NCBI RefSeq assembly: GCF_044324785.1
Contig: NZ_CP172127.1
Direction: 5' to 3' (one strand)
Source: Escherichia coli
GTDB taxonomy: Bacteria; Pseudomonadota; Gammaproteobacteria; Enterobacterales; Enterobacteriaceae
Length of the DNA stretch: 64,000 bases
How positions within the stretch are numbered: the stretch's first letter is position 1; every line of letters begins with the position of its first letter. The notes beneath the pieces are model-generated. The model did no database searches. It was given only the letters and a program-made list of their open reading frames with translations, and was not told the DNA's origin. The position numbers were made by a program, and so were the translations under genes. Shown piece after piece: positions 15,973 to 29,095 of the stretch.

Positions 15973-17910
15973 TCAGTAACGACGTCCCCATTCCGTGGCG
16001 CTCATCAATGTCGGTTTATCCCCCATGAAATAGCGGTAGTAAGCGTCATAAGCCAGCACGTTCTTCACATAACCGCGCGTCTCGGAGAACGGAATACTCT
16101 CGACAAATGCCACTGCGTCGATACGCCCGGCGCTGTTGCCAAGCCAGGTTCGCACCCGCCCTGGTCCGGCGTTATAAGCTGCTGAGGAGAAAATACGGTT
16201 ATTACCAAACTGCTGATAAACATATTGCAGGTAACTGGTGCCAATGTTGATGTTCGTTTCCGGATCCAGCAATTGTCCTGGGCTGCTATAACCAGGAATA
16301 GAGAACATCTTCACCGTATGGGTCGCCGTGCCCGGCATAATCTGCATCAGGCCGCTGGCCCCTACCGGTGATTTCACTTTCGGATTCCAGGCACTCTCCT
16401 GACGGGCAATCGCCATCGCATAGCTTTGCGGGATCTCCTTCCCACTGGTGTAACGTTTGAAAAGATCGTTGTAGGCCAGCGGGAATCTCTCTTCCAGATG
16501 ATCCCAAAGCTTCCCGGCGATCGTTGCCTGAACGCTAAGATCCCACCATTGGTTATTGAAAGCATACCGAGCCAGTTGCGCCTGCTCTGTTTTTGACTTG
16601 CTCTTCACCAGATTGGCCCACTCGCTACGCGCGGTATTATCGAGATTCCAGTACATCAACTCGCGCACGCGCGCCATCTCCGGCCCCTGAGTCAGGGCGC
16701 TGTCAACATTCTGCGGCGCTTTATCAATCTTCAGCTCATACTCTTCACCGATGCGTTGTGCTGCAACCATCGGGTAGAAACCACGCTGTTGCATGAGTTG
16801 ATGCAAAATCTCTTTTGCTTCAGCTTCACGTCCGCGTTCCAGCAGTAAATCCGCCTGCCAGTAACGCCATTCATCTTTCTCTTTCGCCTCCATCGGCAAA
16901 CGCGCCAGCCAGGTATTCAGGCCGCGACGATCGCCGGTGCCAAGCGCCATTCGCACACGGCGTTCAATAAGCGAAGTAGATTGCGAACGCATAATGGCGT
17001 CATCACGCCATTTCGCCTGTTCGTCGGTGACATCGTTGCCCATCAAACGCCAGGCGACGATATCGCGCAGCTCCTGAATCTGATCTTCATTAAGCTGCTG
17101 CGCCTGGGCAAGCGACGGGATCATCAGCCGTGCATTTTCAGCATCCTGCCGCGCCACACTGGCAAACGCCACCGCCGCCATTTGACGGGTAAAATCGGTC
17201 GCTCCGGTTGTACGCGCGAAGGTCAGTACCGTATTAGGATTGTTCGCCAATGAAATAATTGCCGAGGCGATAGTCTGGTAATCGGCAGGCATCTGCCCTG
17301 CCAGCACTGTTACGAGGCCAGTGTTACCCGCTTTCATCGCCAGACGGATACGCTCTAAATACGCCAGCGGATCTTGTTTACCTGACGCACGCCAGACGCT
17401 AAATAACTTGTCACAGGCGTTAGGCTGGCTCTTGCCGGTTAGCCACAGCTCTTTCGCCCCTTGCCAGGCTTCTTCACTCTGCCCGGTGTTCCATTTTGCA
17501 TAGTAGTAATTACATTGCGCTTCGGTAGTTCCGGGCTTTTCCGGGCTAAAGGCTAACAAGCCACGCCAGTCTTCACGCCGCGCCAGTTCATTGACGAAAC
17601 GAGATTGCAGCGTGCGAGCGGGAGGAAGCGTGGGGTTAGCGCGAACAAAGTTAGTGACCGTCACCGCCGGTTGATTCATCAGATCATCGGTGATCTGGCG
17701 GTATTCCAGGTAGGGATAAAGCGGATAATCCTTCAGTCCAGGCATCATTTGTTCGACCACATCCATCTGTCGATTATCCCAGGCCTGCTTGATTTGCGCG
17801 TAACGGCTACGCTGCTCATCCAGTGAGTCGGCTCGCGCCACGCTGCTGACCGTCAGCAGACAGACACCGGCAGCCAACAGCCGCCAGGTAACTTGTTTGG
17901 CTTTTTCCAC
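15973..17910 (-). CDS. slt: Soluble lytic murein transglycosylase Slt70
   Basis: ORF track 15973..17940; start set at the GTG codon giving (M)EKAKQVTWRLLAAGVCLL (645 aa). Confidence 0.93.
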   Translation of the reverse strand: MEKAKQVTWRLLAAGVCLLTVSSVARADSLDEQRSRYAQIKQAWDNRQMDVVEQMMPGLKDYPLYPYLEYRQITDDLMNQPAVTVTNFVRANPTLPPARTLQSRFVNELARREDWRGLLAFSPEKPGTTEAQCNYYYAKWNTGQSEEAWQGAKELWLTGKSQPNACDKLFSVWRASGKQDPLAYLERIRLAMKAGNTGLVTVLAGQMPADYQTIASAIISLANNPNTVLTFARTTGATDFTRQMAAVAFASVARQDAENARLMIPSLAQAQQLNEDQIQELRDIVAWRLMGNDVTDEQAKWRDDAIMRSQSTSLIERRVRMALGTGDRRGLNTWLARLPMEAKEKDEWRYWQADLLLERGREAEAKEILHQLMQQRGFYPMVAAQRIGEEYELKIDKAPQNVDSALTQGPEMARVRELMYWNLDNTARSEWANLVKSKSKTEQAQLARYAFNNQWWDLSVQATIAGKLWDHLEERFPLAYNDLFKRYTSGKEIPQSYAMAIARQESAWNPKVKSPVGASGLMQIMPGTATHTVKMFSIPGYSSPGQLLDPETNINIGTSYLQYVYQQFGNNRIFSSAAYNAGPGRVRTWLGNSAGRIDAVAFVESIPFSETRGYVKNVLAYDAYYRYFMGDKPTLMSATEWGRRY

Positions 17911-18120
17911 AAGCGCATCCTCTAAGTGTAAATACATCAATGCAGCGTCATGCCGCGTAATAGATTTATGCTAACCAGTCATTGCCGTTTACGCCACGTT
18001 ACGGACACTTTTTTACTTTTATCGGGAGGGTGATCGACCGGCTGGGATTAGATAAGGAAACAGGCTACACTTCGCCTTTGAAAACTCATCATCACGATAA
18101 ACATAGAGGCGAAGTCCAAC

Positions 18121-19788
18121 GTGGCTCAATTCGTTTATACCATGCATCGTGTCGGCAAAGTTGTTCCGCCGAAACGTCATATTTTGAAAAACATCTCTCT
18201 GAGTTTCTTCCCTGGGGCAAAAATTGGTGTCCTGGGTCTGAACGGCGCGGGTAAGTCCACCCTGCTGCGCATTATGGCGGGCATTGATAAAGACATCGAA
18301 GGCGAAGCGCGTCCGCAACCGGATATCAAGATTGGTTATCTGCCGCAGGAACCGCAGCTGAACCCGGAACACACCGTGCGTGAGTCCATTGAAGAAGCGG
18401 TTTCTGAAGTGGTTAACGCCCTGAAACGCCTGGATGAAGTGTATGCGCTGTACGCCGATCCGGATGCCGATTTTGACAAGCTGGCCGCTGAACAAGGCCG
18501 TCTGGAAGAGATCATTCAGGCTCACGACGGTCACAACCTGAACGTTCAGCTGGAGCGTGCGGCGGATGCGCTGCGTCTGCCGGACTGGGACGCGAAAATC
18601 GCTAACCTCTCCGGTGGTGAGCGTCGTCGCGTGGCGTTGTGCCGCCTGCTGCTGGAAAAACCAGACATGCTGCTGCTCGACGAACCGACCAACCACCTGG
18701 ATGCCGAATCCGTGGCCTGGTTGGAACGCTTCCTGCACGACTTCGAAGGCACCGTGGTGGCGATTACCCACGACCGTTACTTCCTTGATAACGTTGCAGG
18801 CTGGATCCTCGAACTGGACCGCGGTGAAGGTATTCCGTGGGAAGGCAACTACTCCTCCTGGCTGGAGCAGAAAGATCAACGTCTGGCGCAGGAAGCTTCA
18901 CAAGAAGCTGCGCGTCGTAAGTCGATTGAGAAAGAGCTGGAGTGGGTACGTCAGGGAACTAAAGGCCGTCAGTCGAAAGGTAAAGCACGTCTGGCGCGTT
19001 TTGAAGAGCTGAACAGCACCGAATATCAGAAACGTAACGAAACCAACGAACTGTTTATTCCACCAGGACCGCGTCTTGGCGATAAAGTGCTGGAAGTCAA
19101 CAACCTGCGTAAATCCTATGGCGATCGTCTGCTGATTGATGACCTGAGCTTCTCGATCCCGAAAGGAGCGATCGTCGGGATCATCGGTCCGAACGGTGCG
19201 GGTAAATCGACCCTGTTCCGTATGATCTCTGGTCAGGAACAGCCGGACAGCGGCACCATCACTTTGGGTGAAACGGTGAAACTGGCATCGGTTGATCAGT
19301 TCCGTGACTCAATGGATAACAGCAAAACCGTTTGGGAAGAAGTTTCCGGCGGGCTGGATATCATGAAGATCGGCAACACCGAGATGCCAAGCCGTGCCTA
19401 CGTTGGCCGCTTTAACTTTAAAGGGGTTGATCAGGGTAAACGCGTTGGCGAACTCTCCGGCGGTGAGCGCGGTCGTCTGCATCTGGCGAAGCTGCTGCAG
19501 GTTGGCGGCAACATGCTGCTGCTCGACGAACCAACCAACGACCTGGATATCGAAACCCTGCGCGCGCTGGAAAACGCCCTGCTGGAGTTCCCGGGCTGCG
19601 CGATGGTTATCTCGCACGACCGTTGGTTCCTCGACCGTATCGCCACGCACATTCTGGATTACCAGGATGAAGGTAAAGTTGAGTTCTTCGAAGGTAACTT
19701 TACCGAGTACGAAGAGTACAAGAAACGCACGCTGGGCGCAGACGCGCTGGAGCCGAAGCGTATCAAGTACAAGCGTATTGCGAAGTAA
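18121..19788 (+). CDS. ettA: ABC-F energy-dependent translational throttle protein EttA (YjjK)
   Basis: ORF track 555 aa, MAQFVYTMHRVGKVVPPKRHILKNISLSFFPGAKIGVLGLNGAGKSTLL...; two ABC domains. Confidence 0.97.
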   Translation: MAQFVYTMHRVGKVVPPKRHILKNISLSFFPGAKIGVLGLNGAGKSTLLRIMAGIDKDIEGEARPQPDIKIGYLPQEPQLNPEHTVRESIEEAVSEVVNALKRLDEVYALYADPDADFDKLAAEQGRLEEIIQAHDGHNLNVQLERAADALRLPDWDAKIANLSGGERRRVALCRLLLEKPDMLLLDEPTNHLDAESVAWLERFLHDFEGTVVAITHDRYFLDNVAGWILELDRGEGIPWEGNYSSWLEQKDQRLAQEASQEAARRKSIEKELEWVRQGTKGRQSKGKARLARFEELNSTEYQKRNETNELFIPPGPRLGDKVLEVNNLRKSYGDRLLIDDLSFSIPKGAIVGIIGPNGAGKSTLFRMISGQEQPDSGTITLGETVKLASVDQFRDSMDNSKTVWEEVSGGLDIMKIGNTEMPSRAYVGRFNFKGVDQGKRVGELSGGERGRLHLAKLLQVGGNMLLLDEPTNDLDIETLRALENALLEFPGCAMVISHDRWFLDRIATHILDYQDEGKVEFFEGNFTEYEEYKKRTLGADALEPKRIKYKRIAK

Positions 19789-19876
19789 TGCGTAAAATGC
19801 CGGATGCGGCGCGCCAGCATCGCATCCGGTATTAGTTAAATGATTAGTCCCCGGAAAAAGGCAGAATTTTCTTTAA
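19015..19876 (+). repeat. Left copy of a ~0.86 kb direct repeat (ettA codon Ser299 to stop, REP hairpin, decayed 3' tip of the antitoxin gene)
   Basis: Sequence from agcaccgaatatcagaaacgtaacg... through ...ccggaaaaaggcagaattttctttaa recurs at 23917-24776. Confidence 0.85.
19797..19831. repeat. REP-like palindrome downstream of ettA (gccggatgcg ... cgcatccggt)
   Basis: Inverted repeat read directly; same element recurs at about 24686-24720. Confidence 0.7.
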
Positions 19877-19943
19877 GCGTATTAGCTCAGATGCGGACTG
19901 ACACCTCAAATCAAGCGGGAACTCATGGTTCCCGCTTAACGTT

Positions 19944-20831
19944 TTATTCACCGCGCAGGATCTGGCGGAAATGGGAAACCAGCGGACGTTGGTTGGCTTT
20001 ATGCCAGGCTGCCCATAATTGCGTTGAATAATTCATCCACGGCAATTCACGTAATACCACCCCTTCCGGCGCATTATGACGCAGACTATGTTGAATTAAG
20101 GCCAGACCTAATCCCGCAGCGACCAGACCTAATGCCGTGAGGGGTTCACCCGCTTCCAGGCGAATATCAGGATTAAACCCGGCGTTAACACAGGCGGCGA
20201 CAAAATGATCGCGAGAATGCGCATCGTCGTTATGAATCACCGCAATCCACTGCTCATCGCCAAGTTGTGACGCGACAAGGTTTTCCTCCTGCGCCAGAGG
20301 ATGATTTTGCGGTAAGGCCAACAACATTCGATCATCCAGAACCTGAATATATTCCAGATCCTGCTCGCTGTCGGCGGGCGGCGTATCGACCAGAGAAAAA
20401 TCGAGACTGCGCTGGCGCAGGCCTTCAATCTGGGTAGCCGGTGGTTGGCTGTAAAGTGCGATATGCACATTCGGACGCGATACACGTAACGTACGTAGCG
20501 CCGTAGAAAGCACACCGGAATGCATGGCGTTTTCGATATAGCCAATACACAAGCCACCATCTTCCCCCCGTCCCAGGCGTTTGCCTAACGACTCCAGGCG
20601 GTTGGCGTGTGTCAGCAACGAACGTGTTTCGGCAAGGAATGTCTGTCCATCAGCGGTCAGGCGAATGCGCTGCTGATTACGCTCAAACAGCGTCAGCCCC
20701 AGCCGTTCTTCCAGTTGTGCAATCTGGCGGCTCAGCGGTGATTGCGAGATATGTAATCGCTCGGCTGCGCGTCCCACGTGCTCTTCTTCTGCGACCACCA
20801 CGAAGTACTTCAGTTGGCGTAAATCAATCAT
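19944..20831 (-). CDS. LysR-family transcriptional regulator
   Basis: ORF track 19944..20924; start set at MIDLRQLKYFVVVAEEEHVGRAAERLHISQSPLSRQIAQLEERLG (typical LysR HTH); divergent from the reductase genes. Confidence 0.85.
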   Translation of the reverse strand: MIDLRQLKYFVVVAEEEHVGRAAERLHISQSPLSRQIAQLEERLGLTLFERNQQRIRLTADGQTFLAETRSLLTHANRLESLGKRLGRGEDGGLCIGYIENAMHSGVLSTALRTLRVSRPNVHIALYSQPPATQIEGLRQRSLDFSLVDTPPADSEQDLEYIQVLDDRMLLALPQNHPLAQEENLVASQLGDEQWIAVIHNDDAHSRDHFVAACVNAGFNPDIRLEAGEPLTALGLVAAGLGLALIQHSLRHNAPEGVVLRELPWMNYSTQLWAAWHKANQRPLVSHFRQILRGE

Positions 20832-20964
20832 GTTAGACCTCAAAGGACTTAAGTCAGACGAATTATGTCCTATCAAGTCACAACCTCGCAAGGTATTGTG
20901 ATCCACGTCACAGGGCGATAGCAAAAAAACGCCCTAACCCAAACCGAATAATTGAGGACATCTT

Positions 20965-21975
20965 ATGAGCATCAAAAATTTACTTCCCGGCAAAATTGGC
21001 TTAGGTGGCGCACCACTCGGCAACATGTTCCGTGCCATTCCGGAAGACGAGGCCCACGCCACCGTGAGCGAAGCCTGGAACCTGGGCGTGCGTTACTTTG
21101 ATACCGCGCCGCTGTACGGCTCTGGCCTTTCTGAAATCCGCATGGGTGAAGCGCTGTCTCAGTATCCACGCGATGAATACGTTCTGAGCAGCAAAGTCGG
21201 TCGCATCATGCTGGACGAAATGGAAGATCCGGCAAAACGTGATTTCGGTGAAAAAGGTGGCCTGTTCGAACACGGCCTGAAAAACAAAATTCTGAATGAC
21301 TACTCTGCTGACGCCACGCTGCGCTCGATTGAAGACAGCCTGAAACGCCTGAAAACAGACCGTCTGGATATTGTCTGGATCCATGACCCGGCGCAGGACT
21401 TCTACGGTGACAGCTGGCTGGAACAGTTCAACATTGCCCGTACCGGTGCGTTTCGTGCGCTGACGCGTTTGCGTGACGAAGGTGTGATTAAAGCCTGGGG
21501 ACTGGGTGTGAATCGCGTCGAACCTTGCGAACTGACGCTGGCGCTGGACGAACCGAAGCCGGATGCGTTCCTGCTGGCGGGGCGTTATTCCCTGCTGGAT
21601 CACGAACGTGCGCTGCAACGCCTGATGCCAGAAGCACTGGAACAGAACGTGGATATTGTTGTGGGCGGTCCGTACAGCTCTGGCGTACTGGCAGGCGGCG
21701 AGCACTTTGAATATCAGAAAGCTTCTGCGGCCATCCAGCAGAAAGTGGCGCAAATTAACACCATTGCCACACGTTTCAATGTGAACGTTAAAGCAGCTGC
21801 GCTGCAGTTCGCACTGGCAAACCCGGCCGTTGCGGCGGTTATTCCTGGCTCCAGCCGTCCTGGCCGTATGGCAGAAGATCTGGCTGCACTGAATGCGCCT
21901 GTTCCGGCTGAATTCTGGGCAGAAATGCGCCGTCAAAATCTGGTTGCGGAAAACGCTCCGCTGCCGACCCGTTAA
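20965..21975 (+). CDS. Aldo-keto reductase family oxidoreductase
   Basis: ORF track 336 aa; AKR-type N-terminus (GLGGAPLGNMF...YFDTAPLYGSGLSE); GGAG-type RBS 8 nt upstream. Confidence 0.85.
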   Translation: MSIKNLLPGKIGLGGAPLGNMFRAIPEDEAHATVSEAWNLGVRYFDTAPLYGSGLSEIRMGEALSQYPRDEYVLSSKVGRIMLDEMEDPAKRDFGEKGGLFEHGLKNKILNDYSADATLRSIEDSLKRLKTDRLDIVWIHDPAQDFYGDSWLEQFNIARTGAFRALTRLRDEGVIKAWGLGVNRVEPCELTLALDEPKPDAFLLAGRYSLLDHERALQRLMPEALEQNVDIVVGGPYSSGVLAGGEHFEYQKASAAIQQKVAQINTIATRFNVNVKAAALQFALANPAVAAVIPGSSRPGRMAEDLAALNAPVPAEFWAEMRRQNLVAENAPLPTR

Positions 21976-21994
21976 TCAACCTGGTGAGAAAACG

Positions 21995-22792
21995 ATGAAA
22001 CTGGATCTGACAGGTAAAGTCGCGGTAGTCAGCGGCTCAACCTCCGGCATTGGGCAGGGTATCGCCGCCGGACTGGCAAAAGCAGGCGCAACGGTGGTTG
22101 TCGTCGGCCGTAAACAGCGCGGCGTTGATGACGCCATGGCTGCGATTGCGGCACAAACTCCCACGGCGTCACTGCGTGGCGTGGTGGCCGACCTCAGCAC
22201 CGAAGACGGCGTGGCTGCGCTGATCGCTGCAGTCCCAACGGCTGATGTGCTGGTCAATAATCTGGGCATTTTTAACGATAAAGATTTCTTTAGCGTTCCG
22301 GATGATGAGTGGATGCACTTCTATAACGTCAACGTCCTCTCCGGCGTTCGTCTGGCGCGTCACTATGCGCCAGGCATGACGGAACAGGGCTGGGGGCGGA
22401 TTATCTTTGTCTCGTCCGAATCCGGCGTGGCAATCCCTGGCGACATGATCAACTACGGCGTCACCAAAGCCGCGAATCTGGCGGTTTCTCATGGTCTGGC
22501 GAAACGACTGGCGGGGACCGGTGTGACCGTCAACGCCATTCTGCCAGGGCCAACCTTTACCGATGGCCTGAAAGAGATGCTGGCGGATGCCGCTGCACAA
22601 TCGGGACGCAGTGCGCGTGAACAGGCCGATGAGTTTGTTAAAACCTCGCGTCCGAGCTCCATCATCCAGCGTGCGGCGGATGTGGAAGAAGTGGCGAATC
22701 TGGCGGTTTATCTCGCGTCACCGCTTTCCTCGGCAACCACAGGGGCAGCCCTGCGCGTCGATGGTGGCGTCGTCGACACCCTGACTATGTAA
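21995..22792 (+). CDS. Short-chain dehydrogenase/reductase (classical SDR)
   Basis: ORF track 21893..22792; start set at MKLDLTGKVAVVSGSTSGIGQGIA (TGxxxGxG); YGVTK catalytic motif present. Confidence 0.85.
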   Translation: MKLDLTGKVAVVSGSTSGIGQGIAAGLAKAGATVVVVGRKQRGVDDAMAAIAAQTPTASLRGVVADLSTEDGVAALIAAVPTADVLVNNLGIFNDKDFFSVPDDEWMHFYNVNVLSGVRLARHYAPGMTEQGWGRIIFVSSESGVAIPGDMINYGVTKAANLAVSHGLAKRLAGTGVTVNAILPGPTFTDGLKEMLADAAAQSGRSAREQADEFVKTSRPSSIIQRAADVEEVANLAVYLASPLSSATTGAALRVDGGVVDTLTM

Positions 22793-22817
22793 CCCTATAA
22801 ATTAAGAGAAAATTATC

Positions 22818-23234
22818 ATGGCTAAAACAACTGTATCGATCGAAATTCCGGCTTCTGCCGACGCCGTATGGCAATTGATGGGCGGCTTTGATGCGCTGCC
22901 AGACTGGCTGCCGTTCATCCCGAAAAGCGTGGTGACAGAAGGCGGTCGCGTTCGTTCGCTGACAACCTCTGACGGCGGCACTGTGGTTGAACGTCTGGAA
23001 GCGTTTGATAACCGTCAACGCAGTTATACCTATTCCATTATTCAAGCACCGTTCCCAGTGGTGGATTACCTCTCCACCATTACCGTTCATGAAACCGCCG
23101 ACAGCCAGGTTTCCCGTGTGGAATGGTTCGGTGAATTCACCCCGGTGAATGTGACGAACGAAGAGGCCGAAGCGCTGTTTACCGGCATCTATCGGGATGG
23201 TCTCAAGGCGCTGAAGGACAACTTTGTTGCCTGA
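22818..23234 (+). CDS. SRPBCC (Bet v1-like / polyketide cyclase-dehydrase fold) protein
   Basis: ORF track 138 aa; size and composition typical of SRPBCC small-molecule binding proteins; family call from memory only. Confidence 0.6.
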   Translation: MAKTTVSIEIPASADAVWQLMGGFDALPDWLPFIPKSVVTEGGRVRSLTTSDGGTVVERLEAFDNRQRSYTYSIIQAPFPVVDYLSTITVHETADSQVSRVEWFGEFTPVNVTNEEAEALFTGIYRDGLKALKDNFVA

Positions 23235-23391
23235 TGCAATCGACAGGCGTCGGAACGTCCGGCGTCTGATTATTAACAAAAGCAGAATAGTCTATTGTCA
23301 TTTGTATCATTTATGTTATCAGGCAGCAGGCGTATTCTCTTCCCATCGCGTTAATAAACGCCAAACAATTAAGACACTCTGGAATATAAAC

Positions 23392-23604
23392 ATGAAAACG
23401 ATCATCGCAATTTTTACGGCTTCTCTTTTCTCTGTCGCGGCGTTTAACGCATCGGCGCAAAGCGTGACAGCAACCGGTACAACACTGGATTCTGCGGAAG
23501 CAGTTATTGCGCAGAAAGCGAAAGAGATGAACGCCTCTGAATACAAAATCACCAGCGCTCGCATGGGCAATACCGTCACCATGAGTGCCGAACTGTACAA
23601 ATAA
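23392..23604 (+). CDS. Small secreted DUF1471 (YdgH/BhsA/McbA-like) protein
   Basis: Internal start MKTIIAIFTASLFSVAAFNASAQ (signal peptide) within ORF track 23224..23604; 70 aa. Confidence 0.6.
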   Translation: MKTIIAIFTASLFSVAAFNASAQSVTATGTTLDSAEAVIAQKAKEMNASEYKITSARMGNTVTMSAELYK

Positions 23605-23652
23605 CCGCGCAAGGGACCCATTACGTAATTTGCTAAATATGCGCTGAATGCG

Positions 23653-23838
23653 TTGCCATTAAAAAACCGTATTGTAATGCCACCGATGACACGTTCCCGT
23701 GCGGGTGACGTTGCGACTGACATGATGGCGGACTATTACGCGCAGCGCGCTAGTGCAGGACTTATCATCAGCGAAGGTACGCAAATCAGCAGAAGCGCTG
23801 CGCATAATTTTCCACGGCCCGCTGATTTACTCCGGTAA
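23653..23838 (+). pseudogene. Remnant of an Old Yellow Enzyme (NemA-like NADH:flavin oxidoreductase) N-terminus
   Basis: ...LKNRIVMPPMTRSRAGDVATDMMADYYAQRASAGLIISEGTQIS resembles the OYE N-terminal region, then the frame terminates after about 60 codons. Confidence 0.5.
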
Positions 23839-23916
23839 ATAGACCAAAGCGCGCGCAGAAGCGGACTGTCAGATTTGATTGCATTCTGGCTACGCAACTG
23901 GTCGGTTGGAGTATGA

Positions 23917-24677
23917 AGCACCGAATATCAGAAACGTAACGAAACCAACGAACTGTTTATTCCACCTGGACCGTGTCTGGGCGACAAAGTGCTGGAAGTC
24001 AGCAACCTGCGTAAATCCTATGGCGATCGTCTGCTGATTGACTCCCTGAGCTTCTCGATCCCGAAAGGAGCGATCGTCGGGATCATCGGTCCGAACGGTA
24101 CGGGCAAATCGACGTTGTTCCGTATGATCTCTGGTCAGGAACAGCCGGACAGCGGCACCATCACTCTGGGTGAAACGGTGAAACTGGCATCGGTTGATCA
24201 GTTCCGTGACTCAATGGATAACCGCAAAGCCGTTTGGGAAGAAGTTTCCGGCGGGCTGGATATCATGAAGATCGGCAACACCGAGATGCCAAGCCGCGCC
24301 TACGTTGGCCGCTTTAACTTTAAGGTAAACGCGTTGGTGAACTTTCCGGTGGTGAGCGCGGTCGTCTGCATCTGGCGAAGCTGCTGCAGGTTGGCGGCAA
24401 CATGCTGCTGCTCGACGAACCAACTAACGACCTGAATATCGAAACCCTGCGCGCGCTGGAAAACGCCCTACTGGAGTTCCCGGGCTGTGCGATGGTTATC
24501 TCGCACGACCGTTGGTTCCTCGACCGTATCGCCACGCACATCCTGGACTACCAGGATGAAGGTAAAGTTGAGTTCTTCGAAGGTAACTTTACCGAGTACG
24601 AAGAGTACAAAAAACGCACGCTGGGCGCAGACGCGCTGGAGCCGAAGCGTATCAAGTACAAGCGTATTGCGAAGTAA
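23917..24677 (+). pseudogene. ettA: Frameshifted duplicate of the ettA 3' half
   Basis: Near-identical to ettA 19015-19788 but with a ~13-nt deletion near 24318; ORF track splits it into 23989..24435 and 24402..24677. Confidence 0.85.
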
Positions 24678-24776
24678 TGCGTAAAATGCCGGGTGCGGCG
24701 CGCCAGCATCGCATCCGGTATTAGTTAAATGATTAATGGGAGGCAAGTTCCCGGAAAAAGGCAGGATTTTCTTTAA
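23917..24776 (+). repeat. Right copy of the ~0.86 kb direct repeat (ettA 3' fragment, REP, and the true 3' end of the antitoxin gene)
   Basis: Aligns by eye to 19015-19876 with point differences and two small indels. Confidence 0.85.
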
Positions 24777-25017
24777 TTGTGGCAAGTACTTTTGCAGCCA
24801 ATCCCGTAGGATTTCTTCGCTTCGATTCCCAGCTTTTAATGGTATCCACACTGGTTCCCAGAGCTTTTGCCATCTCACTTTGAGAAACGTTGAGTTGCTC
24901 ACGAATAGCTTTAACATCCGCAATTTCGTAGCGGGTCACCCGTGCAGGTTCTTTTAAACCTTGTTTAATCTCGACAGCCTCTTCCAGAGAGGTTTTCAAC
25001 TCATCAAAAAAACTCAT
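24733..25017 (-). CDS. XRE-family HTH antitoxin (HigA-like)
   Basis: ORF track 94 aa, MSFFDELKTSLEEAVEIKQGLKEPARVTRYEIADVKAIREQLNVSQSEMAKALGTSVDTIKSWE...; starts 1 nt after the toxin stop. Confidence 0.75.
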   Translation of the reverse strand: MSFFDELKTSLEEAVEIKQGLKEPARVTRYEIADVKAIREQLNVSQSEMAKALGTSVDTIKSWESKRRNPTGLAAKVLATIKENPAFFRELASH

Positions 25018-25018
25018 T

Positions 25019-25351
25019 TTATACCTCGCCTTTGAGCAGTTTCGTCAACTTCTTTAGTTGAGCTTTTTCCGTATCTGTCAGACTATCTTTGGCATTTTTC
25101 GGATAGGCCATAATCAAATAAATAATCTCTTCCGTCGCCAGAAAGTAAATTATTCTGACACTGCCACTTTTTCCCTGTGAACCCGCAGCCATTCGGACTT
25201 TACGCAATCCACCAGTCTGCTGAATGAGATCACCTTTATCGGGAGTTCCGATGAGTTCTTTTTGTAATTCCTTTAATTCATCATCGGTTGCAATCTGCTT
25301 GATCTGACGCGTAAACATTGGCGTCTCTATAAATATTATCGCCTTGCCCAT
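25019..25351 (-). CDS. RelE/ParE-superfamily toxin, HigB-2-like
   Basis: ORF track 25019..25429; start set at MGKAIIFIETPMFTRQIK... with GGAGG upstream; GGLRKVRMA...GSVRIIYF motif region resembles HigB-2 toxins. Confidence 0.7.
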   Translation of the reverse strand: MGKAIIFIETPMFTRQIKQIATDDELKELQKELIGTPDKGDLIQQTGGLRKVRMAAGSQGKSGSVRIIYFLATEEIIYLIMAYPKNAKDSLTDTEKAQLKKLTKLLKGEV

Positions 25352-25442: not shown

Positions 25443-26675
25443 TTATCCCTGCTCCCCCATCATCTCCCGCACCAGCTCCACACAGCGCAGGAAACGGCTG
25501 TCGTAATCGTCCTCTTCAACCCGCACAAATTCGATATTGTTCTCTTCCAGCATCTCTACCAGCAAGTTCTGGAACTCTTTGCGATCCACCGAACTACCGA
25601 GGCTGCGTAAACCATCCGCCACCCACGGGGTGTTGTTCTCCAGCAAGATAACCAGATCAAAACGGTATTCATCGATCAGCGCCTGCACGAACGGATGCTC
25701 CCGCCCTTCGTACTTTTTGCAGAACGCCTGGGTAGTGACAAAATCAGTGTCGATAAACGCCACTTTATTGGCATATTTCACTGCAAAATCAATGTATTGA
25801 GCGTGTCCCAGCGCGATTTTATCGTAGTCGGAATACTGCAATGCGATCTCATCACCGCCAAGGTGTGAAAAGACATAATCGCGACCATATTCCCATGCAC
25901 TGGTAGTGTTGAAGATATTAGCAAGTTTGTTTACCAGGGTGGATTTACCGCTCGACTCGCCGCCAAGGATCGCCACGGTACGCACAAAGAACGGCTTCAC
26001 TTCGGTGGGAATATATTCCCAGTAGCGGAACGGGTTTTCGCGGATCTGCGCACCGCTGATACTCATAAAGGTACGCTTCGGATCGACCAGCACCGTCTCG
26101 ATCCCCAGATGTTCCATATACTGTGGCGCATCGGCTTCTTCCGAGGTGTAGATCAGGTCCGGCTGGATCCCCTTTTCAGCCATAAACTTTTTGATGCCGT
26201 TGCTCCACACATCCCAGCCGTGCGGATATGGCTCCATGCCCTCTTCGTTGAAAGCATGAATACGGATATTTTTCTGATATTTAAAGGTTTGCAATAACCA
26301 GCGCAGACGATCCGGCACGGTGGGCTGCTGCGACATGGCGCTGTCTTCAAACAACGCGCGGTCGCGGGTATCGTCAAAACCCATAATGATATGCAGCTCG
26401 TCAACCTGGCTACAGGCGCGCTGGATAAGGTAGATATGTCCGGTATGTAGCGGGTAGAACTTACCGAATACGACACCAATGGTTTTCTTCTGTCGGGGAA
26501 ATTCAAGCCCCAAAAAACGGTGCAACGCCTCCAGTTTTTGCGCGCTGGGGCTTTTAATTTTGGCATTCAGTAACTGGCTTAAATACCCTTTGGTCATACC
26601 GCTGGCATCAGCTACCTGCTGTAGCGTGCAGCCCTGTTGCTTGATGGCAGTTTTCAGGTAATCAAATGACGACAT
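25443..26675 (-). CDS. nadR: Trifunctional NAD biosynthesis regulator / NMN adenylyltransferase / ribosylnicotinamide kinase NadR
   Basis: ORF track 25443..26696; start set at MSSFDYLKTAIKQQGCTLQQVADASGMTKGYLSQLL (410 aa). Confidence 0.95.
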   Translation of the reverse strand: MSSFDYLKTAIKQQGCTLQQVADASGMTKGYLSQLLNAKIKSPSAQKLEALHRFLGLEFPRQKKTIGVVFGKFYPLHTGHIYLIQRACSQVDELHIIMGFDDTRDRALFEDSAMSQQPTVPDRLRWLLQTFKYQKNIRIHAFNEEGMEPYPHGWDVWSNGIKKFMAEKGIQPDLIYTSEEADAPQYMEHLGIETVLVDPKRTFMSISGAQIRENPFRYWEYIPTEVKPFFVRTVAILGGESSGKSTLVNKLANIFNTTSAWEYGRDYVFSHLGGDEIALQYSDYDKIALGHAQYIDFAVKYANKVAFIDTDFVTTQAFCKKYEGREHPFVQALIDEYRFDLVILLENNTPWVADGLRSLGSSVDRKEFQNLLVEMLEENNIEFVRVEEDDYDSRFLRCVELVREMMGEQG

Positions 26676-26695
26676 ATCTCCCTCCGTATCTCTCA

Positions 26696-28078
26696 TTATA
26701 AGTCGTCGAACACGCTAAGCGCGTCGGAGAGTTTTTTAACGCCAAAAATCTGCATCCCTTCCGGCGCTTTTTTCGGCACGTTAGCCGCCGGAACAATCGC
26801 CCGGCGAAAACCGTGTTTCGCCGCTTCAGAGATTCGTTCCTGACCGCTGGGCACCGGGCGGATCTCCCCTGCCAGCCCGACTTCACCAAACACCACCAGA
26901 TCCTGTGGCAGCGGTCTGTCGCGCAGGCTGGAAACCATCGCCAGCAGTAACGCTAAGTCGGCGCTGGTTTCGGTTACCTTCACGCCGCCGACCACGTTCA
27001 CAAACACATCCTGATCGGCCATTTGCAGACCACCGTGACGGTGCAAGACAGCCAGCAGGATTGCCAGACGGTTTTGTTCCAGCCCCACTGCCACGCGGCG
27101 CGGATTCGCCATCATCGAGTGATCGACCAGCGCCTGAATCTCCACCAGCAACGGACGCGTTCCTTCCCACACCACCATCACTGAGCTACCGGAGGTCACT
27201 TCATCACCGCGGCTTAAAAAGATGGCGGAAGGGTTGCTGACTTCACGCAGCCCCTGTTCGGTCATCGCGAAGACGCCCAGCTCATTCACCGCGCCGAAGC
27301 GGTTTTTATGGCTGCGTAAGGTGCGAAAACGGGAGTCGGCATCGCCATCCAGAAGCACCGAACAGTCAATACAGTGTTCCAGCACTTTAGGGCCAGCCAG
27401 CGAACCATCTTTGGTTACGTGCCCAACCATGACAATCGCCACGCCGCGCGTTTTGGCGAAGCGCGTCAGATAAGCCGCCGTTTCACGCACCTGCGCCACG
27501 CTGCCAGGCGATGATTGTACATCCGCCATATGCATCACCTGAATGGAGTCAATTACCATCAGCTTCGGTTGCTCTTCTTCGGCAATCAGGCAGATTTGCT
27601 CGATGCTGGTTTCCGACAACATATTGAGATTGTCAGTCGGCAGGCCAAGGCGATGAGCGCGCATTGCCACCTGTTGCAGCGACTCTTCGCCGGTGACATA
27701 CAGCGTTTTCATCTGCTGCGCCAGTTTGCACAGCGTTTGCAGCAACAGCGTGGATTTCCCCGCACCTGGGTTACCGCCAATCAGAATGGCGCTTCCCGGC
27801 ACCACCCCGCCGCCTAATACGCGGTCGAACTCTTTAAATCCGGTGGAAAAACGCGGCAGCTCTTCAAGGCTGATGTCGGAAAGTTTCTGGACTTTTGCCA
27901 CCCCGGCGCTACCGGCATAGCCACTGAGACGCTCGTTACGCGCCACCGTTGGTGACGCGGCAAGACGCACCTCGGTGATGGTGTTCCAGGCATGACAGGC
28001 ACTGCACTGTCCCTGCCAGCGCGGATAATCGGCCCCGCATTCATTACAAACAAAGGCGCGTTTTGGAGCTTTTGCCAC
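26696..28078 (-). CDS. radA: DNA repair protein RadA (Sms)
   Basis: ORF track 26696..28126; start set at the GTG codon giving (M)AKAPKRAFVCNECGADYPRWQGQCSACHAWNT (460 aa). Confidence 0.95.
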   Translation of the reverse strand: MAKAPKRAFVCNECGADYPRWQGQCSACHAWNTITEVRLAASPTVARNERLSGYAGSAGVAKVQKLSDISLEELPRFSTGFKEFDRVLGGGVVPGSAILIGGNPGAGKSTLLLQTLCKLAQQMKTLYVTGEESLQQVAMRAHRLGLPTDNLNMLSETSIEQICLIAEEEQPKLMVIDSIQVMHMADVQSSPGSVAQVRETAAYLTRFAKTRGVAIVMVGHVTKDGSLAGPKVLEHCIDCSVLLDGDADSRFRTLRSHKNRFGAVNELGVFAMTEQGLREVSNPSAIFLSRGDEVTSGSSVMVVWEGTRPLLVEIQALVDHSMMANPRRVAVGLEQNRLAILLAVLHRHGGLQMADQDVFVNVVGGVKVTETSADLALLLAMVSSLRDRPLPQDLVVFGEVGLAGEIRPVPSGQERISEAAKHGFRRAIVPAANVPKKAPEGMQIFGVKKLSDALSVFDDL

Positions 28079-28126
28079 GGTGTACCTCGTTAATGCTGTG
28101 CCGCCCGCAGGATGACGGGCGAGCAA

Positions 28127-29095
28127 TTACTTCTGATTCAGGCTGCCAGAGAGGATGCAGAATACCCCCATCAGGTCAGCGTGACGGATGGTGACTTCCG
28201 TCTTTTCATTCACTTTTGGCTTGGCATGGTAGGCAATCCCCAGCCCTGCCGCTTTGATCATCGGCAGGTCATTGGCTCCATCACCAATCGCCACGGTCTG
28301 CGCCAGCGGGATTTCATACTCCTGCGCGAGGCGAGTCAGAGTTTTCGCTTTGTACTGCGCGTCAACGATGTCGCCGATCACATTGCCGGTAAATTTACCG
28401 TCCATGATCTCCAGTTCATTGGCTACCACGGCTGTCAGGCGCAGCTTGTCGCGCAGGTATTCAGCAAAGAAAGTAAAGCCGCCGGAGGCAATCGCCACTT
28501 TCCAGCCCAGCGTTTCCAGCTTGAGTACCAGCTGCGTTAAGCCTGGCATCAGCGGCAGATTTTCACGCACCTGTTGCAGGATATTGGCGTCAGCGCCTTT
28601 CAGCGTCGCCACACGGCTGCGCAGGCTGGCGGTAAAATCGAGTTCGCCGCGCATCGCCCGTTCGGTTACCTCCGCCACCATCTCGCCCGTTCCGGCCAGT
28701 TTGGCAATTTCATCAATACATTCAATCTGGATGGCGGTGGAATCCATGTCCATCACCAGCAAACCTGGCGTGCGCAGGTGCGGGATTTTCCCCAGCGGCG
28801 CGACATCCAGCTGCGCTTCGTGGGCCAGGCGCGTAGCCCGCGCGGTGAGTGAACCTGCCAGACGAATCACCTGATAATCTTCCACGCACCAGGCGGCAAC
28901 AATCACCATAGCCGCGCCCAGTTTGCTCTGGTATTGGGTCAGACGTTGTTTATCCAGCCCACGACCATACAGCAGCCAGCCGCTACGACCTGCGTGGTAA
29001 TCCAGTGGCATCACTTCATCACCACTTAATGAAAGAGGCAGACCCGGCCATAAAGAGACATCTTCAGGCAGGTCGCACCAGGTAATGTTAGGCAT
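28127..29095 (-). CDS. serB: Phosphoserine phosphatase
   Basis: ORF track 28127..29233; start set at MPNITWCDLPEDVSLWPGLPLSLSGDEV (322 aa). Confidence 0.95.
   Translation of the reverse strand: MPNITWCDLPEDVSLWPGLPLSLSGDEVMPLDYHAGRSGWLLYGRGLDKQRLTQYQSKLGAAMVIVAAWCVEDYQVIRLAGSLTARATRLAHEAQLDVAPLGKIPHLRTPGLLVMDMDSTAIQIECIDEIAKLAGTGEMVAEVTERAMRGELDFTASLRSRVATLKGADANILQQVRENLPLMPGLTQLVLKLETLGWKVAIASGGFTFFAEYLRDKLRLTAVVANELEIMDGKFTGNVIGDIVDAQYKAKTLTRLAQEYEIPLAQTVAIGDGANDLPMIKAAGLGIAYHAKPKVNEKTEVTIRHADLMGVFCILSGSLNQK

Follow-up and report, generated by a model that had tools for sequence, protein, structure and literature searches.

The interval between ettA and nadR in the stretch of Escherichia coli DNA analyzed here (64,000 nt of contig NZ_CP172127.1, assembly GCF_044324785.1; hereafter the window) raises the question of how a cassette of accessory genes came to lie between two copies of the 3' end of a housekeeping gene, beside an intact toxin-antitoxin pair. 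An earlier sequence-only reading of this window saw in the arrangement the product of a single-crossover (Campbell-type) integration of a circular DNA that carried the cassette. Comparison of alleles across E. coli indicates instead that the cassette is resident at this site in a plain form first, without a second ettA end, and that the duplicated form is later. The allele of the window is very probably a later recombinant of a cassette-bearing allele and an allele with the intact toxin-antitoxin pair; that it arose specifically through a circle and a single, Campbell-type crossover is the route that we favor, with distinctly less assurance.

To define the repeated unit we aligned its two copies. 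Positions 19015-19876 (862 nt, + strand) and 23917-24776 (860 nt, + strand) are collinear direct repeats, with 97% identity over 873 alignment columns. The left copy begins at 19015 with the first base of codon 299 (AGC, Ser) of an intact ettA of 555 codons (18121..19788, + strand; an open reading frame annotated as ettA in the collinear genome of strain 06-00048), the 3' 774 nt of which form the bulk of the copy. It continues past the stop codon through a repetitive extragenic palindromic (REP)-type hairpin (19796..19833, + strand; folding energy -27.5 kcal/mol, z = -4.46) and finishes with 41 nt of a decayed 3' end of the antitoxin gene nadS (19836..19876, - strand), which translates as KENSAFFRGLII*. 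The right copy comprises an ettA pseudogene, hereafter ettA', that likewise runs from codon 299 to the stop (23917..24677, + strand) and has several substitutions found in no sampled functional allele, a hairpin one base different from the left one (24685..24722, + strand), and, as its final 44 nt (24733-24776), the genuine 3' terminus of nadS, which is intact here. The copies differ by 29 substitutions, 26 of them in the ettA part and 3 in the REP and tip part; in addition 13 nt are absent from the right copy after repeat position 407, which shifts the frame of ettA', and 11 nt (AATGGGAGGCA) are absent from the left copy. Both ends of the repeat are sharp: the bases preceding 19015 and 23917 differ, and divergence sets in right after 19876 and 24776. 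The extent of the repeat, its start at Ser299, the differences and frame-breaking deletion of the right copy and the genuine antitoxin end in it are thus as the sequence-only reading had described them. It was also right that the left tip is a relic of nadS, but this tip did not decay after the duplication: its 11-nt deletion and 2 substitutions are common to all cassette-bearing alleles and were inherited.

An approximately 860-bp repeat exceeds short reads, and a misassembly with a collapsed or duplicated contig end is conceivable in principle. We give it a negligible probability, as the copies differ at 29 sites and by 2 indels, and the whole 9.3-kb arrangement (9301 nt) is collinear in the complete genome NZ_CP015229.1 of strain 06-00048, with 123 substitutions, 0 indels and 1.3% divergence. 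That genome has the same 13-nt deletion and the same joint between cassette and ettA' as the window. Because the same structure occurs in one independent complete genome, the repeat is real and no artefact of assembly. Over this 9.3-kb region the best overall match of the window reaches only 98.7%, which places the strain it came from outside the set of 5426 complete E. coli genomes that were searched. For the nadR-radA-serB flank (25443-28800) identity lies at 95.4-97.9% with the majority of sampled E. coli and at 99.0% with strain N3.

A comparison of the locus in those 5426 complete genomes revealed six forms. The first, ettA-REP-nadS-toxin-nadR, occurs in KE51 and others. In the second (IAI39, AR_0013, PI24) the toxin is deleted, leaving ettA-REP-full nadS-nadR, and in the third, that of K-12, which has the same toxin deletion endpoints, the order is ettA-REPs-5' nadS stub-nadR. 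The fourth (strain 439) is ettA-REPs-nadR. The fifth, found in strain 144 and many others and here termed plain, runs ettA-REP-nadS tip-cassette-5' nadS stub-nadR with the toxin absent, the last base of the cassette directly abutting the 5' nadS stub. The sixth is that of the window, with the second ettA end present. The toxin gene is found in 672 of the 5426 genomes, and all seven that were sampled (KE51 and six more) have the order ettA-REP-nadS-toxin-nadR, which the sequence-only reading had proposed as ancestral. The cassette is found in 482 genomes, always with an identical left junction, always in single copy and always on the chromosome. A 120-nt probe across the joint of cassette and ettA' was matched at full length in 1 genome, that of 06-00048, and a probe across the plain joint of cassette and nadS stub in 481, with no ettA repeat there. 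Similarly, 21 cassette loci that lack the duplication (L004, L086-L106) were checked for the toxin, the middle of nadS and a second ettA end, and all three are absent from every one. Cassette and toxin stand together in only one genome of the 5426, again 06-00048, where about 60 would be expected under independence. In metagenomes the plain joint is present in 13 of 13 contigs containing the right end of the cassette, and a search for the duplication joint gave no match while the plain joint, as positive control, gave these 13. A count of 415 genomes matching at ≥80% coverage was rejected as a tally of duplication alleles, since a single ettA end matches both copies in the query; the junction-specific queries gave 1 against 481. 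Thus empty and occupied sites do exist between ettA and nadR, but the occupied ones mostly lack the ettA repeat. The Campbell-type geometry of the earlier reading stands, together with the reciprocal mosaic and the E. coli precedent discussed below, but not as an account of the arrival of the cassette, given that 481 of 482 genomes and 13 of 13 contigs are without the repeat.

Several of these loci also show how the toxin-antitoxin pair has fared. IAI39 (L119:2422-2706), like the other two strains of its form (L120, L121), has a full-length nadS that encodes the same protein as that of the window and has the K-12-type toxin deletion; from an orphan full nadS of this sort both the K-12 stub and the cassette-bearing alleles seem to have descended. 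K-12 (L003:2790-2950) has three REP elements in place of the 3' half of nadS, and strain 439 (L005) has no nadS at all; in these two states the orphan antitoxin seems to have decayed along different routes. Single genomes carry further lesions at the locus: in TUM13773 (L112:1601-1932) the toxin gene is frameshifted, in isolate 30821_1#117 (L091:535-2202) ettA has an internal stop, in E300010 (L108:8343-9040) an IS1A lies between the nadS stub and nadR, and for AR_0372 an IS1397 transposase is listed under the match to the region.

Which of the two cassette-bearing forms came first can be addressed at the right end of the cassette. The plain and the duplicated junction use the identical last cassette base (...GGAGTATGA[AG]), and therefore one junction type derives from the other. 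Upstream of it lie a remnant of an Old Yellow Enzyme (OYE; N-ethylmaleimide-reductase-like) gene (23623..23861, + strand), identified by alignment to the intact OYE of E. coli E69, itself a family match, and to the long-form alleles, and a 55-nt tail (23862..23916) that is terminal in every allele, whether short, GNAT or TauE form, and whose last base is the breakpoint of both junction types. In the OYE remnant the start codon is mutated, 6 nt are deleted and so is a large internal stretch; the remnant terminates at the short-form deletion joint. Long forms of the cassette contain either a GNAT gene (20 genomes) or genes for a winged helix-turn-helix (wHTH) protein and a TauE/SafE protein (21 genomes). 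In both, the OYE remnant remains homologous to the outgroups' intact OYE for about 50 nt further, after which come the extra genes, the same 55-nt tail and a junction of the plain type. Since in-register OYE sequence could not have been supplied by an insertion, these long forms are the ancestral state. The short form arose by deletion between CGAA(G) repeats; its endpoints are identical in the short alleles without duplication and in both duplication alleles; the window and 06-00048 are thus of the derived short form. As this deletion lies only 55 nt from the junction, its transfer between junction types by recombination is unlikely. A further indication, which we consider moderate because recombination inside the cassette is common, comes from the last 540 nt of the cassette: at sites polarized with E69, E. 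whittamii and Yokenella the duplication alleles fall among derived haplotypes, and strain O145, which has no duplication, keeps the outgroup states at the right end. A rooted tree of the island did not settle the polarity, as the two duplication alleles do not group as sisters in it and there are clear signs of recombination; the structural markers settled it instead.

The reverse order would make the duplicated form primary, through Campbell integration or through a tandem duplication with the cassette at its joint, and would derive the plain form by a 976-bp deletion of ettA', REP and the 3' part of nadS, plus loss of the toxin. Geometry alone permits this, the recombination within the island blurs haplotype polarity, and ettA' is old. 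The window and 06-00048 share in ettA' not only the 13-nt deletion but also 10 substitutions found in none of the alleles first compared, 4 of which change the protein, and at least one of which (250C) is a polymorphism present in strain CP53. The two ettA' copies differ from each other at 9 sites, and about 13 substitutions separate them from the nearest functional ettA. These shared and private changes and this distance indicate that the allele is old and was inherited or transferred as a unit; the identity of the nadS and toxin genes in the two genomes is consistent with continued constraint on them. Nevertheless we consider the reverse order very improbable. The long forms, with their more ancestral OYE, are already plain, and both duplication alleles are short, so that it would need a long-form duplication allele, which is unobserved, and besides this either the same deletion twice or an exchange inside the 55-nt tail. 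The 976-bp deletion would have to begin at precisely the initial base of ettA'. It would also leave a truncated antitoxin next to an intact toxin; prior loss of the toxin would avoid this, but at the cost of more steps. The frequencies, 481:1 in complete genomes and 13:0 in metagenome contigs, also speak against it. The order with the plain form first needs fewer steps, and the toxin-less intermediate with full nadS, which would make an insertion of the cassette into nadS harmless, exists.

If the duplicated form is secondary, its parents should be recognizable in the two copies of the repeat. Across the locus, ettA, REP, the decayed tip and the short cassette at the left trace to a cassette-bearing allele, and everything from the nadS tip rightward, with nadS and the toxin gene, to an allele with the intact pair. 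Site comparisons suggest that these copies are reciprocal haplotype chimeras that switch at about repeat positions 790-839, although the support is only probabilistic because the alleles are mosaic and the samples small. Between positions 401 and 830, ettA' has 5-6 differences from the cassette-allele ettA of O145 and 2017C, 7 from the K-12-type strain CP53 and 14-16 from the sampled alleles with the intact pair. The right copy reads 441T/447T/639C/645C/708A/790G and then enters an intact nadS tip, being of the intact-nadS type from position 839 onward (11 nt present, 846T, 862G). The left copy reads 639T/645T/708G/790A and then enters the tip of the cassette alleles (11-nt deletion, 846C, 862A). 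The left copies of both duplication genomes are 639T/645T, as are 7 of 7 intact-pair alleles, and C/C stands at these sites in 15 of 16 cassette alleles and in 0 of the 7 intact-pair alleles sampled. The 3' haplotype of ettA' joined to an intact nadS was not found above 99.2% among the 5426 genomes, the best match being of the toxin-less IAI39 type. We had taken 639C/645C for a marker specific to cassette alleles, but rejected this as the haplotype is present in 2783 of 5421 genomes; the argument now combines association with the state of the locus and the lack of any match above 99.2% just mentioned. From the site tables of repeat positions the crossover would map to 19804..19846 in the left copy and to 24693..24742 in the right copy, where the sequence to the left is like cassette-allele ettA and that to the right is of the intact nadS type.

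This mosaic bears directly on a rival that invokes the same two parent alleles, namely recombination that is homologous at one end and sealed by an illegitimate joint at the other, as in homology-facilitated illegitimate recombination. In a first version a linear fragment of an intact-pair allele, ending at codon 299, would undergo homologous exchange with a cassette-bearing chromosome at the nadR side, and the fragment's unpaired tail would be sealed at the boundary of homology; in a second, a linear cassette fragment anchored in ettA of an intact-pair chromosome would be joined back at codon 299. The first version explains why the joint lies at the last base of the cassette, which is where homology between the alleles ends, and we initially favored it for this exact reuse; the 2-nt overlap at the joint is also like those reported for this process, which is documented in E. 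coli. Yet such models predict a right copy wholly of the intact-pair type, whereas ettA' at 401-830 is nearest to cassette alleles (5-6 against 14-16 differences) and switches type between positions 790 and 839, so that the predicted single-parent copy is not what is seen. The first version further predicts a left copy of the cassette type throughout, and both left copies are T/T where 15 of 16 cassette alleles are C/C. We abandoned it over the chimeric right copy and the left copy that is not of the cassette type. Moreover, in E. coli the one-ended process is about 10-fold rarer than recircularization and gave deletions rather than duplications (PMC3240628). In sum, we regard one-ended recombination as an unlikely origin of the allele, though one to be taken seriously. 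The reciprocal chimera fits one crossover between a circle and an intact-pair chromosome.

The favored history can accordingly be put together from states that are preserved in extant alleles and from a final exchange that would have united two of them. Comparison of the alleles shows that the oldest recoverable form was ettA-REP-nadS-toxin-nadR and that loss of the toxin gave full nadS alone, as in IAI39. In this toxin-less lineage the module of LysR, aldo/keto reductase, SDR, SRPBCC, DUF1471 and OYE genes, together with extra flanking DNA, replaced 116 nt of nadS, leaving the 3' tip of nadS at its left and the 5' stub at its right, and the short cassette then resulted from a deletion located some 55 nt inside the right end. 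DNA of such a short-form allele may next have entered a cell that still held the toxin-antitoxin pair. There a linear piece reaching from ettA codon 299 to the last base of the cassette would have been closed into a circle by an illegitimate joint, and the circle would have integrated by one RecA-type crossover within the 862 nt of ettA 3' end, REP and nadS tip homology, at about positions 790-839. Such an integration would add the cassette, duplicate the homology and leave nadS and the toxin gene untouched, and the truncated right copy of ettA would then have decayed.

Both partners required by this history exist as arrangements. An allele of the recipient type, one in which the homology occurs once and nothing is inserted, is found in KE51 and the six other sampled genomes, and the donor-type arrangement, with ettA 3' end, REP, nadS tip and cassette contiguous, is present in 481 genomes, which also show the tip deletion, the short form and the last cassette base of the window. 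Because the cassette was already resident and the left tip was inherited, the circle must have been cut out of a different E. coli allele at this locus. The joint of cassette and ettA' overlaps by 2 nt (AG); a search for extended similarity around it found none (P about 0.5-0.7 against shuffles), nor was a Chi site found near the breakpoints. In E. coli, linear DNA trimmed by RecBCD is known to be religated and to integrate by a recA-dependent single crossover, leaving duplications of 109-950 bp (PMC3240628).

A number of points weigh against the circle and against the assignment of parents. The joint that closes the circle lies at most 2 nt from the plain-junction breakpoint, for which the probability with a random break is of the order of 1e-3; a candidate explanation is that a non-homologous tail may have been clipped at the homology boundary while the cassette fragment was paired with the intact-pair chromosome on the nadR side, which would set free just the piece that is afterwards circularized. 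Neither the circular intermediate, which as a transient fragment would leave no trace, nor the donor strain has been observed. The ettA alleles are highly mosaic, with the C/C haplotype as widespread as noted above, one of the 16 cassette alleles (L100) is T/T at 639/645, and the intact-pair sample consists of only 7 alleles. The 5' parts of both left copies resemble the ettA of cassette-bearing strains, so that a later allelic exchange must be assumed. Finally, the cassette of the window has 17 differences from that of N3, which has no duplication, against 55 from that of 06-00048, indicating that island sequences have been shuffled. With respect to N3 (L086), the window is identical at 17500-18700 and nearly identical at 19900-21500; between them, at 18700-19900, 26 differences are clustered in the ettA 3' region as a recombination patch over the left copy.

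The contents of the cassette are, as in the sequence-only reading, five genes and the OYE remnant between the copies. A LysR-family regulator (19944..20831, - strand) is followed by an aldo/keto reductase (20965..21975, + strand; both with open reading frame, annotation and family match), an SDR-family oxidoreductase (21995..22792, + strand; annotation and family match), an SRPBCC-family protein (22818..23234, + strand; open reading frame and annotation) and a small periplasmic DUF1471 (YdgH/BhsA/McbA family) protein (23392..23604, + strand; annotation and family match). The same module, LysR to OYE, occurs in E. coli E69 at 97.8% identity with an intact OYE of 365 codons, in E. whittamii at 95.8% with an independent internal OYE deletion, and in Yokenella and Trabulsiella at 82-89%. 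In E69 and E. whittamii neither ettA nor nadR is nearby, and in the loci of E69, E. whittamii and Yokenella (L006:8951-13761; L007:8947-13116; L010:8984-13749) its contexts are unrelated and no mobility gene lies inside it. What the ettA locus has outside this shared module is, at the right, the variable slot and the 55-nt tail and, at the left edge of the cassette, a filler of 36 nt (19877..19912) that is not in the module of E69 and E. whittamii, homology to which starts at 19911-19915. The filler and the right tail (23862-23885) have in common GCTC...GCGGACTG as a direct and TCAAATC/GATTTGA as an inverted sequence, which may be a relic of an earlier context of the cassette or of a recombination site. 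A 1397-nt contig labelled as a Collinsella sp. metagenome-assembled genome (L008, JAIJJM010000794.1) encodes the aldo/keto reductase of the cassette at 100% identity and is most likely E. coli contamination of that bin. As to base composition, the genes between the copies had been thought more GC-rich than their surroundings. The cassette is indeed at 53.8% GC against 51.6% for the window, but ettA (55.0%) and slt (54.2%) are higher still and only the SDR gene stands out (59.3%); the argument is weak, and we set GC content aside as uninformative on a foreign origin.

The slot between the OYE remnant and the 55-nt tail has three alternative contents between identical borders (L091:6274-7000; L107:7003-8565; window 23857-23862): a GNAT acetyltransferase gene, the wHTH and TauE/SafE genes, or, in the window and most genomes, the deletion. 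The wHTH and TauE/SafE content is flanked by 15-nt inverted repeats, CGGAAGTTGGTAGTT / AACTAAGAACTTCCG. The slot looks like the site of a cassette exchange without a visible enzyme, and its alternative contents within identical borders next to the tail may be a sign of recombinational activity at this end of the cassette. These features, along with the use of the right end of the cassette as a breakpoint on two occasions and the unrelated contexts of the module in E69 and E. whittamii, might recommend a mobile island moved by a site-specific recombinase or transposase, with the repeats as att sites or a target duplication. We hold this to be highly improbable. As the sequence-only reading had said, no integrase or transposase is found in or beside the interval, and no insertion sequence either, whether in the list of open reading frames or in the RefSeq annotation of the collinear genome. 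The repeat consists of 862 nt of a housekeeping gene, is missing from 481 of 482 occupied sites and has no tRNA target. Within E. coli the cassette is single-copy and chromosomal, and its E. coli version was found on no plasmid or phage, the best plasmid match being an Ewingella megaplasmid at 71.8%.

The remaining genes of the interval belong to the recipient side of the proposed exchange. The intact nadS (24733..25017, - strand) encodes a predicted helix-turn-helix (HTH) antitoxin-like protein of 94 aa that matches the NCBIfam family NadS (NF041265) with 182.6 bits against a cut-off of 60 and also shows a weaker MqsA-type HTH similarity; in K-12, nadS is reported to be expressed (PMC12350097). 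It is separated by 1 nt from an intact gene for a RelE/ParE-family toxin (25019..25351, - strand; Pfam RelE PF06296, E = 5.9e-10, and annotation), the two being adjacent small genes that match antitoxin and toxin families. Both are identical to their counterparts in 06-00048. The right-hand core flank begins with nadR (25443..26675, - strand; open reading frame and annotation).

The proposed event can be placed among known ways of adding DNA to a bacterial chromosome. Integrase-type genomic islands are flanked by direct repeats, the att sites, often at the 3' ends of tRNA genes. As in these, an accessory block lies here between direct repeats, one of which is in the 3' end of a core gene; unlike them, the locus has no integrase, its repeat measures 862 nt and not tens of nt and is missing at 481 of 482 occupied sites, and what distinguishes occupied from empty sites is a target deletion of 116 nt with no conserved attachment core. 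Another parallel is offered by ISCR1-linked genes in complex class 1 integrons, where 3'-conserved segments are duplicated and a circle is rescued by homologous recombination. In both cases a circle with homology, a single crossover and two copies of the homology around the cargo are involved, but the window has no ISCR/IS91 element, oriIS or terIS, and its circle would stem from breakage and ligation. Homology-facilitated illegitimate recombination is known from Acinetobacter, Streptococcus pneumoniae and Pseudomonas stutzeri. It too combines one homologous exchange with one joint of 0-2 nt overlap and integrates DNA beside the anchor, but it usually deletes recipient DNA, whereas the window shows a duplication and a chimeric right copy. 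This process has been measured in E. coli, in the same study that described recircularization (Amarir-Bouhram, Goin and Petit 2011; PMC3240628). The products of recircularization are those most like the window: heterologous DNA is added beside a chromosomal locus, a direct duplication flanks the insert (109-950 bp in those experiments, 862 bp here), one edge of the repeat is an illegitimate ligation joint and no site-specific recombinase takes part (PMC3240628). The differences are that the substrate was a conjugated suicide plasmid there and would be a natural chromosomal fragment from another allele here, that the event in the window is ancient, with fixation in two lineages or more, unlike the laboratory products, and that the joint lies exactly at the last base of the cassette, which the model of that study does not predict. 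Lastly, the decay of type II toxin-antitoxin modules of a RelE/ParE toxin and an HTH antitoxin into orphan stubs is seen here as a full series, from the intact pair through nadS alone and the 5' nadS stub of K-12 to nothing in strain 439, the activities of toxin and NadS being predicted. For the duplication this module matters only as the context that additive integration left intact.

Whether the pair had a more active part is a separate matter. Two-sided allelic replacement that brought in the cassette would remove both nadS and the toxin gene, or would truncate nadS beside a live toxin, so that a chromosome with the intact pair might gain the cassette only by an additive single crossover. 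That the toxin-antitoxin pair dictated the outcome in this manner is a reading that we consider unlikely. Were replacement lethal or growth-arresting, the ettA duplication would be the natural footprint of a toxin-antitoxin module blocking allelic replacement in its neighborhood, and the near-exclusion of cassette and toxin (1 genome against the roughly 60 expected) would be partly selective and not only a matter of historical linkage.

As a case study, the locus presents a natural instance of a known recombination product and not a new kind of system. At the level of annotation, it explains the pseudogene recorded as a frameshifted partial ABC protein in strain 06-00048, which is ettA'. More generally, it would constitute a well-resolved natural example of a route documented mainly in laboratory crosses, the circularization of a fragment followed by a single crossover, by which genes are added and part of a housekeeping gene is duplicated with no mobile-element enzyme involved. 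Further, the six-state allelic series at this one locus of E. coli can be used to ask whether toxin-antitoxin pairs constrain the exchange of neighboring DNA.

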